From contig OZ037771.1 in NCBI GenBank assembly GCA_964035545.1, positions 4,537,628 to 4,601,627 on the forward strand: a DNA stretch of 64,000 nucleotides. The letters are read 5' to 3'. Made by a program: the position numbers and the translations under genes. The stretch's first letter is position 1. Each line of letters opens with the position of its first letter. Below are positions 10,739 through 13,700 of this stretch, one piece after another. Origin of the DNA: Bugula neritina. Taxonomy: Eukaryota; Animalia; Bryozoa. The notes under the pieces are model-generated. The model had not been told where the DNA came from, did not search any database, and was given only the letters and a program-made list of their open reading frames with translations.

Positions 10739-13700
10739 TCATTGTGAAGACTCTTGCCTGGCTTGCTTGGTCCAAGAAGGCCAAGCGATGTCATCCGCCT
10801 CGGTCATATCCTCGAGCGCGGGATATAACCTTGCGGATGGGGTGTTTTGGTCAACAGTAGAAATGGGGGTTGTACTTTCTATTTGGGAATGAATGGGGGA
10901 TATTAAGGAATGTAATTCCGTGGCTGTCGTAGTTTCTTCTGCTGTTGGCTGGTGTGTTGTAATTTGTTCTACGTCTACAGCATCTACTACGATTCTGCCA
11001 CGCCTTTTGCAGATGTACTTGATGCATAGATGGTAATATAGTTTCTTGGAGATGAAGACGATTGAAGCAATCGTCACGATGAGGTTTGCCAGCATGGTCC
11101 ACAACTCATATACTGAGGCCACATGACCTCCGAACAAGAAGGAGAAATATGAGTTACCCAGTATGCCTTCCTGGGTCTCTATTCTATTCTTGTCCAAAGT
11201 ATGGTGTGGGGAGCTGACAACCCCAACGGCTTTCAACACCTGCGCTTGGCGGTTGAGTGTTGAAAGGATAGCATTTAAGGAGTGGTGATGACTAAAATCA
11301 GCCCAATTTAGTCTATGTGCGCGACTGAAGATATTTTCGTGTAATTCCAAGGGAGTAGCTCCTAATTTGATGTTTGGCAAGGATAGAATTGTAGTGTTTG
11401 GGGCCAGTTTTAGAGATTCGTTCCATGAATATAGGTAAATAATACCGTCCAATTTCACAGGAACTTCCTCTCTGTGAGTGCAGTCTACGTTGTATGAGTC
11501 AGGGTGTATTATGTTGTCTACAGGGTCCAGATATCCAATGGATTCGAGACCAGCTATAGATATTTGTATCGGCAAGTAGTTGGTGCAATTATTGTGTTTC
11601 ATTTTCAGTAGTTGGTAAGAGGTTCTTTCCAACTCGGTGCAGGGGTACACCTCTAAGTAGCCAGGGCCGGCTTTCGCGACCACGTTACTCAATTGCAACA
11701 TGTGTCTTGCTGCTGTTGTGGGGTGTCGTTCAAGTAGGAGAGTGATGAGGTTAATGGTTTGGGCAGTGTTGTGACACGAATAGTAGTATGAAGTCCAGAA
11801 TAGTTTTTGTGCGGTGGTGATTTGTTCTAACGCTAGAGCTTGCGCTATTGCGTTTATTGTAGACGCATATTGGCCTACGATCTGATATGTGGCTGTGACG
11901 TTGTTACGAATGGTAACATTGTGGAGTGGCGTTATGAACCTCAACATCAGCCCTTGGTCCGACATCGACGTGTTCTTGCCGTGGCAGTCCTTCGTCGAGT
12001 TGATTCCATATCGGGCGAACGTCAAGGCCATCGAGTGGTCGCTACTAACGAAGTGGTTGTCGAAGAAGGTGCCTTCCTCCATGTACCACTCCGTATGTCT
12101 GCAGTGGGTCTGCTTCCGTGGTTCCCATATGAGGATGGAACCGTCGTCCAATTTGCAGCTTCCTTCGTCATATTTGCAATGACGAACGTCGCCTGCAGTG
12201 GACTCGAATTCCTTATCCTCATGCCTTTTGTACACGGTCGCTCTAACTATGCTGCACTGATTCTTCGAGAAGAATTGCTTCTTGCAGCAGTGCTTGTACA
12301 CTGCTTCAACCTTGTTGCGCGTAGTGAAGACACCATCTCCGCCCTTAAGCTCACCCGCGTCACAGTGTTTTGAGGCAACCATGTCGATGCACTCTCCCCG
12401 CGTGATAGGCCGGTTCTCTATGTGAGCATTGCGGATTTTCACATCGGTGAAGAGAGACACTAACGTGGTGACCACAGATTTGAACTTCTTGCATTGGTAT
12501 GCTGGTGACTCCCATTCTATTGTGTTGGGTTTGTATACCATGATTTTTGTCTGTTGGGGCTGTCGCGTGGGGTCAGTCTTGTCATGTCCGGGGCAGGTGT
12601 AGTTAGTGTTCAGTCGGAACAAGTGGGGTTGGTCAGTATGGTGTGAGCCGCATACCATGGGGTTTTTTGCTTCTACCGGGGTCGCTCCACAGCCAAGGAA
12701 ACAGCTTAGCAAGCATAGCATTGCTAGTTGTACCGCATCCATGACTGAGAGTTTTCTGCCACCTCTTCTACTTTTGGCCTTCGGTCCTTTTGCCTTGGGA
12801 GTTAGTTCTACGGCGTTGACGTGTTCCTGGCCTGGATCTTGATTTAGGAACTGGAATGCAAACTCGTCAGGACCAAGGTCGCTGACGACGTTTACATTAG
12901 AGCATTTGCTCCCATAATGCCGGTTCCCGCAAGACTTGCAGGGCCAAGGATTTTGTCCACGCCCATTGCCGTAGTTCTGACCTGTGCGATTGTTATTGTG
13001 CCTGTGTGAAGATTGGTGGTTGTATGACCCTCTTTGTTGGTTAAAAGGGGCTTGGTGTTGGTTAAAAGGGGCCTGATGTTGGTTGTGGGTGCCTTGGTTA
13101 TAGTAGCGCTGTGGTTGGTTGTAACCACCTCTTCTGTTGCCTCGGTTACCACCGCGTCCTCTACCACGGTATCGGTTGGGCTGGTAGTTATTGCTCCTGT
13201 AACTTTTCTCCTCTTGCTCCTTGGATCTTATTGACTGAGCTTTTATAAGCTCAGCCAGACCGTCTATTTGCTTTTGCAGAGGAGCTATGAGTTCTGCTTG
13301 GCTCCGGGTGTAATTAATTTCCGCGACTATTTCTGACTCTATGAAATTTATTTTTTGAGTCTTGAGTGCTCCATCTACCGCTTCAAGCTTCTTTGCTTCC
13401 TCCAAGGTCTGTTGCAGGGTGAGTTCACCCTTCAGAAGGATATCCCTCTGATGGGCTTCGTTCAGCCCTGCAATAAATACGTTCGTCAACACTTTGTCTC
13501 TATATTCCTCCGGCATATCCAGGAATGCCGACTGGCCTTGAGAGACTACTTCTGTGAAGAATTCTCCAACAGTTTTCTTCCCCTGTGACAGTTTCCAGAG
13601 GCTCTTCCCTAGCAGTGGGTTGCTTCTCTGGAACATCGTAGCCAGTTTGGGTTTAAGTGCAGTGTAGCTGGTGGCACAGCCGGGCGCCTGTTTCACTACC

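Follow-up and report, generated by a model that had tools for sequence, protein, structure and literature searches.

Late-domain motifs in the Env cytoplasmic tail of a gag-env-pol Ty3/gypsy element from the bryozoan Bugula neritina

How env-bearing invertebrate retrotransposons leave the cell is largely an open question. An LTR retrotransposon in the 64-kb stretch of Bugula neritina DNA analysed here (the window) raises it in a particular form, since env lies between gag and pol, and a motif of a class found in retroviral Gag late domains sits behind the transmembrane helix of Env. Is this motif what remains of a Gag end into which env was inserted, or does it belong to the Env tail itself, and what would such a tail do for the element?

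The element is an intact Ty3/gypsy (Metaviridae) LTR retrotransposon on the minus strand, running from 16084 to 3768 of the window, with the Pol order PR-RT-RH-IN, TG...CA LTRs, a target-site duplication and a primer-binding site that mark this group. Its two 639-bp LTRs are identical over all 639 bases, so the insertion is recent and the element young. Gag and Env share one open reading frame in the order CA, zinc knuckle, internal signal peptide, ectodomain, TM helix and, last, a tail about 100 residues long, and the main features are as follows.

15446..16084, minus strand: 5' LTR, 639 bp, TG...CA, identical to the 3' LTR; GCTA target-site duplication at 16085-16088
15431..15443, minus strand: primer-binding site, begins TGG, 2 nt inside the LTR
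10739..14401, minus strand: single Gag+Env ORF, 1220 codons from stop to stop, with the earliest ATGs at 14371 and 14329
12902..12940, minus strand: NC zinc knuckle, a C-X2-C-X3-H-X4-C variant
12683..12754, minus strand: internal Env signal peptide, basic n-region and hydrophobic core, by inspection
11105..12682, minus strand: Env ectodomain, class III with a herpes gB-like fold, by predicted structure and Foldseek
11036..11104, minus strand: Env transmembrane helix
6872..10738, minus strand: Pol (PR, RT, RNase H, IN), in the same frame as the Gag+Env ORF, after one TGA
3768..4406, minus strand: 3' LTR; GCTA target-site duplication at 3764-3767

The Gag+Env ORF has a Retrotrans_gag match at E 2e-4, under the curated cut-off. 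The structural model of the ectodomain has a mean pLDDT of 83, and every one of its top Foldseek matches is a herpesvirus gB, at an E of about 1e-20 and a TM-score of about 0.3; by this model, the ectodomain is herpes gB-like class III. A Monjiviricetes_fusion match was found in the homolog P0007 and none in the window's own protein. The gag-env-pol order, in which signal peptide and TM enclose a gB-like class III ectodomain, is that of the GAG-ENV-POL errantiviruses with HSV/gB-type Env, which have been described from Nematoda, Bryozoa and Platyhelminthes (Chary and Hayashi, eLife 2026, PMC13524379). All full-length homologs, 11 among the 12 found in a first search, are likewise Gag-Env fusions, and the twelfth is an N-terminally cut fragment.

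Several further observations concern the element and its surroundings. Between pol and the 3' LTR lie 2.5 kb (4407-6871) with short antisense ORFs containing hydrophobic stretches (5997-6242 and 6407-6559), the latter after a splice-acceptor-like sequence. Two pairs of internally deleted copies (L064-L067) share breakpoints (window 11755 to 6532; 12236 to 7284), so the deleted forms have themselves been copied. Elsewhere in the window, 42146-57639 is a diverged duplication with a spacing of about 8-10 kb and ORFs of 468 aa (46378-47784) and 451 aa (56284-57639), neither with a convincing Pfam match, and 21707-23346 is MITE-like, with 386-bp inverted repeats around an AT-rich microsatellite core.

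Two short motifs stand out in the Env tail.

10814..10828, minus strand: LYPAL, a YPxL-type late-domain motif in the Env cytoplasmic tail, exact in sequence
10772..10789, minus strand: conserved I-x-W-P-S-[WFY] motif, after LYPAL

A preliminary description of this DNA had placed LYPAL at 10814-10828, after the TM, where we find the exact match on the minus strand. It had read LYPxL as a late-domain-type motif and had let this reading depend on conservation in relatives, which is what we observe. Among the 12 database proteins of the first search, 11 have a tail and 10 of these carry [LIV]YPxL. A wider search, from which we took the best 150 of 479 representative matches, gave usable tails for 74 of 162 Env-bearing proteins; the other 88 were left out of the tail counts for having too little of the Env C-half, no TM or a tail of fewer than 45 residues. 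In the Env tree of the best 150 of 479 matches, 24 tails form a clade (FastTree support 0.998), and [LIVFM]YPxL is present in 20 of them, with a shuffle mean of 0.09 and a maximum of 2. An IQ-TREE quick search recovers the same clade branch at 100% SH-aLRT and adds the long-branch protein P0223, which makes the LYPxL count 20/25 instead of 20/24. Since the clade members are related, this count is a measure of conservation and not of 20 independent gains.

The conservation is concentrated on the motif. In an alignment of the 24 clade tails among the matches listed, median pairwise identity is 22%, as against 37% in the C-half of Env, and only 8 columns are at least 60% conserved. The Y (22/24), P (23/24) and L (22/24) of LYPxL are the best-kept columns of all. 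Across the five families for which DNA is available, the LYPxL codons differ at synonymous positions and the distance of the motif from the tail end varies over 1-38 residues, a combination which places the constraint on the protein and not on the RNA.

LYPxL does not stand alone. PT/SAP occurs in 8/24 and PPxY in 7/24 clade tails among the matches listed, and at least one late motif in 22/24, each count being above all 1000 shuffles; all three ESCRT late-domain classes are thus present in the tails of this clade. In the 50 tails outside the clade among the matches listed, LYPxL is found once, PT/SAP in four and PPxY in seven, and 41 have no late motif. The PT/SAP and PPxY counts outside the clade also exceed shuffles, which break proline runs and are a lenient control. 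Given these 41 tails and the two clade tails that have none among the matches listed, the architecture does not require late motifs. The tail of a second family in this genome, whose Env is 42-43% identical, is unrelated and closes with PSAP and LYPKL right ahead of the stop. The W-P motif, which like the PT/SAP and PPxY of the relatives was absent from the preliminary description, is more widespread than LYPxL; among the matches listed, 7/24 tails of the clade and 16/50 distant ones have it a short way ahead of PR or the stop (shuffle mean 6.7).

Gag shows nothing comparable, with [LIVFM]YPxL in the Gag part of none of the 12 proteins and scattered PSAP or PPxY in that of 4/12, the window's Gag having neither. 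The three late-domain classes recruit ALIX, TSG101 and NEDD4-like ligases, combine with one another and function independently of position (PMC7995964, PMC8402826), and MLV Gag carries PSAP, LYPAL and PPPY together (PMC8402826). The host genome has two loci with Bro1 and ALIX V-domain exons, which may be ALIX or HD-PTP. With a conserved hydrophobic-Y-P-x-L in an otherwise variable, presumably cytosolic segment, and a host gene encoding Bro1 and a V domain, the Env tail likely recruits ALIX/ESCRT via LYPxL.

The tail ends at a stop codon whose context is that of a leaky stop.

10736..10744, minus strand: CAA-UGA-CUA leaky-stop context between Env tail and Pol

In the five families with DNA, the context reads CAA-TGA-CTA in four and CAA-TGA-CAA in one, with Pol in frame in all five, and glutamine is the last residue in 15/19 stop-subclade proteins among the matches listed. 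UGA-CUA alone gives about 1.5% readthrough (PMC4132726). All 20 close Pol relatives (52-75% identity) are recorded as separate proteins starting at or within PR. We infer that Pol is expressed by UGA-CUA readthrough from the Env tail. Outside the clade, 28/50 proteins among the matches listed run continuously from Env into Pol, as do four members of the sister subclade described below, so the stop is probably derived. Contigs covering parts of gag, env and pol, from 4 of the 15 listed runs (3 of the 4 only presumed to be RNA), contained no joint that skips env into PR; such contigs carry no information on strand, ends or absence, and they are still compatible with a gag-pol or pol message made by splicing. 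Copies of the second family (L009-L016 and L062, in G000:C1, C2, C8 and C9) still contain a Gag-Env ORF that is long and open, together with the leaky stop and mostly PR, and in the one copy for which 10 kb downstream was checked no ORF of 200 aa followed; possibly these copies are non-autonomous, with structural genes retained.

If Gag, Env and Pol are made as one chain, the element's protease would separate them, and candidate sites lie at the domain borders.

13313..13357, minus strand: CA-end protease-like sites QKINFIE (13337-13357) and IVAEIN, ranks 8 and 5 of 1215, aligned in homologs
12806..12901, minus strand: spacer region with post-NC site, conserved acidic peptide and pre-signal site
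12881-12901, minus strand: protease-like site SNVNVVS, directly after the zinc knuckle, rank 7 of 1215
12806-12826, minus strand: protease-like site EHVNAVE, about 20 residues before the signal peptide, rank 1 of 1215
10973..10993, minus strand: protease-like site IVVDAVD, post-TM, exact, rank 2 of 1215
10688..10708, minus strand: QVLGILD, a likely site at the N-terminus of PR; by eye, Pol relatives have a similar sequence; rank 102 of 1283
10298-10318, minus strand: EAINNVA, rank 44 of 1283
8555..8575, minus strand: RH/IN junction site EILAVES, aligned with 24 relatives, rank 5 of 1283

The RH/IN junction must be cut by a gypsy protease. In the Pol relatives it reads [VI]-x-[ATV]-[IV]-[ED], and the ranks above come from a five-column profile trained on 24 such Pol junctions, with the window's own left out. 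The window's four Gag-Env motifs take ranks 1, 2, 7 and 8 of 1215 positions. In the 12 Gag-Env proteins, matches of at least 6 bits fall on 37/1626 positions in three border regions, on 6/7050 other non-ectodomain positions and on 17/6570 ectodomain/TM positions, an enrichment that is partly circular, since the border regions were drawn after the alignment had been seen and the RH/IN training site is itself placed from domain order. For the post-TM site, the profile rank is joined by the clade tail alignment, in which V is kept in 18/24 and A in 19/24 tails among the matches listed. In Ty1, the protease cuts sites in which Val/Ile occupy P2 and P2', mostly with N or A between (PMC6952103), and the window motifs, EAINNVA excepted, follow this pattern, share it with the obligatory Pol junction and lie at domain borders.

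All seven motifs named in the preliminary description are present at their places on the minus strand, whereas IVAEIN, QVLGILD and the leaky-stop context were not in it. Its reading of the V-x-A-V-type motifs as protease-like finds support in conservation at RH/IN and, within Gag-Env, at the end of CA, behind NC, ahead of the signal peptide and past the TM. EAINNVA, proposed there as a site after PR, we reject as a firm site, given its low profile rank and its alignment with variable sequence in relatives. The post-TM motif had been proposed to free tail and Pol from Env; it does look protease-like, but is probably unneeded for Pol, because a separate site appears (by eye) before PR. Being present on every Env molecule, the post-TM site more likely serves removal of the tail.

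The spacer between NC and the signal peptide has features of its own. At 12830-12880 the clade shares a conserved acidic D/E-F/Y-A-x-x-L-x-x-Q pattern, partly triplicated in P0014. In a third, distant env-bearing family of this genome (L061:4350-5945, G000:C4), NC and the Env signal peptide are separated by a dUTPase (Pfam E 5e-32) with similar V-rich motifs on either side; the related copy L060 lacks this dUTPase, so the spacer tolerates cargo. Six distant gag-env-pol proteins (P0152, P0198, P0207, P0240, P0242 and P0154) have at least two protease-like domains, some of them upstream of Env.

Where did the tail come from? The preliminary description took env to lie inside the end of gag, which is correct for its position, as Env follows NC and precedes PR; Env lies there in most long homologs, which makes capture in the NC-PR linker plausible. 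It further took the tail to be the original Gag C-terminus. If an env cassette, from signal peptide to TM, had landed in a Gag C-terminus that already ended in a p6-like peptide, the tail would be relic Gag, and its position between NC and PR, its end at a gag/pol-type recoding site and its bracketing by protease-like sites would all follow. HIV p6 is likewise bracketed by protease sites. An independent capture of env by one Pol lineage would also account for the confinement of LYPxL to one Env clade whose proteases group as well, and would suit the scatter of env-bearing Pols on our weakly resolved RT tree and the report that GAG-ENV-POL elements are not monophyletic in Pol (PMC13524379). Env-less elements, however, do not bear this origin out. 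An arrangement of LYPxL, stop and pol directly after NC, named in the preliminary description as a check, was not seen in those sampled, which are distant (Pol identity about 31-44%). A late motif is present in the NC-PR linker of 0/15 env-less single-ORF Gag-Pol proteins (linkers that are short, two proteins with a far-off knuckle having been left out) and between NC and the gag stop of 0/5 env-less families among 22 loci of this genome, where Gag ends about 5-25 residues past NC. One env-less family in six (L068/L069) does have EYPKL before PR, in the pol frame, but EYPKL of L068 reads DFPRL in the sister family L092 and is missing from the relative P0116, and we rejected it as support. In one case, P0262, a BEL/Pao protein of pol-env order whose Env is related, PTAP lies in an Env tail that cannot be Gag. 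In a sister subclade, 4/5 members among the matches listed have LYPxL and four run from Env into PR without a stop, so LYPxL followed by stop and pol is not a shared state; the sister-subclade proteases match those of the stop group best (three tested, low scores). The midpoint root falls on the branch that sets the LYPxL clade apart, a placement compatible with gain as well as with loss (quick search, SH-aLRT only). Own-genome searches with Gag, RT and two sister Pols returned no env-less element closer than about 44% identity, the single exception being a partial RT match at 61%, next to a broken copy of family 2. Looking for env-less relatives of Gag under 670 aa, we obtained five matches, which align with part of the query at 61-92% identity. 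The nearest Pol sisters (P0044, P0047, P0057 and P0075) are sequences without DNA context, and a viral-contig scan found none for P0047. We consider a relic Gag end unlikely; in the likeliest reading, the late motifs are a property of this one clade's Env tail.

The motifs themselves could also be read differently. LYPAL is short and lies in a proline-rich, disordered region, where chance matches arise, but 20/24 clade tails among the matches listed against 0.09 expected, together with the synonymous codon variation, make chance hardly credible. The V-x-A-V motifs could be short beta-strand or assembly motifs, or spacer repeats: the cleavage sites are predictions, the profile ranks EAINNVA and QVLGILD low and a few ectodomain positions as high as the proposed sites, and the spacer of P0014 is triplicated. 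Set against this, the same motif recurs at the RH/IN junction of 24 relatives, clusters at domain borders and matches the Ty1 site pattern (PMC6952103), and we regard a purely structural role as quite improbable. A use of the tail motifs other than scission deserves more weight, though we think it rather doubtful. They could be real ESCRT or ubiquitin-ligase sites that serve multivesicular-body sorting of Env or of particles, or Env turnover. Sorting signals are usual in glycoprotein tails, where these motifs lie, and most distant relatives among the matches listed have no late motifs. Herpes gB traffic depends on the MVB pathway (PMC7995964). On the other hand, three interchangeable classes in a small protease-bracketed peptide are the pattern of a budding adaptor, and the clade's Gag has no conserved late motif to take their place.

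The explanation that we favour, and hold to be probably right, is that Gag and a gB-like Env are made in one frame, that the Env tail is a budding adaptor which recruits ALIX, that Pol is added by readthrough and that the tail is clipped. From the gene order, motifs, conservation and stop context observed here, we infer the topology, readthrough, binding, cleavage and budding of this model. The polyprotein would thread the ER membrane twice, with Gag cytosolic, the ectodomain luminal and the tail cytosolic again. Gag would be anchored through the internal signal peptide of Env, and signal peptidase would separate it from Env. If a few percent of ribosomes pass CAA-UGA-CUA, Pol would enter particles joined to the end of the Env tail and not as Gag-Pol. 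The tail motifs would bring ESCRT to the bud neck, ALIX via LYPxL, to which relatives would add PT/SAP or PPxY. After budding, the element's protease would cut sites of the V-x-[AN]-[VI] type, freeing CA and NC from the signal anchor, and would also release PR, RT and IN. The same protease would clip the late-domain tail off the TM, which may also switch on fusion, as happens when MuLV Env loses its R peptide at maturation (PMC3917443).

A stronger form of this model is possible, and we put it forward tentatively, as something short of an even chance. The late functions of Gag would have moved onto Env, with Gag tethered only by the Env signal peptide; no Gag-Pol would exist, so that budding would be obligatory, and one protease cut would both strip the adaptor and arm the fusogen. 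Without Gag-Pol, even transposition within the same cell would require a particle that has budded and acquired an envelope. Should the Env tail be the only carrier of Pol, there would be no retrotransposition without membrane budding, and the life cycle would be nearer that of an enveloped virus than that of a retrotransposon. Since all three late-domain classes can be recognised in the sequence, at an unusual location and together with candidate protease sites and a leaky stop of standard type, ESCRT use, processing and Pol packaging become testable.

The gag-env-pol order and the Env type have already been published, whereas the tail features were not found in print, and a prior mention is possible. 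The main text of PMC13524379, which our search covered, has no mention of late domains, ESCRT, readthrough, frameshift, or fused or single ORFs; the GAG-ENV-POL errantiviruses described there are like the window element in their Ty3/gypsy Pol, LTRs, gene order and gB-like class III Env. A literature search, covering mainly openly accessible papers, returned no description of Env-tail late domains, Env-to-Pol readthrough or processing sites for such elements.

Set beside other known systems, the element combines features of several. Nematode endogenous retroviruses reportedly have env between gag and pol in a continuous gag-env-pro-pol ORF (as Sacco et al. 2022 are said to have described), which would be the state of 28/50 distant homologs here among the matches listed, whereas in the window's clade the Env tail has a late-domain cluster and is followed by a leaky stop. 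In flavivirus and alphavirus structural polyproteins, an internal signal sequence joins capsid to envelope, and a viral protease sets the capsid free. The join of capsid, signal and envelope would be the point of analogy; the window element differs in being reverse-transcribing and in having its polymerase follow the envelope tail. Its stop context shares the UGA-CUA of alphavirus-type readthrough (PMC4132726). Retroviral Gag late domains (HIV p6, EIAV p9 and MLV) have the same three motif classes, combined with one another and variable between relatives, and LYPAL is letter for letter the MLV motif (PMC8402826), but in the window's clade these motifs lie in the Env cytoplasmic tail, and Gag has no conserved one. 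The MuLV R peptide (PMC3917443) is similarly a segment of the Env tail removed at maturation, a cleavage only predicted here, where the segment would be about 80 residues long, carries late motifs, bears Pol on readthrough and belongs to a class III and not a class I fusogen.
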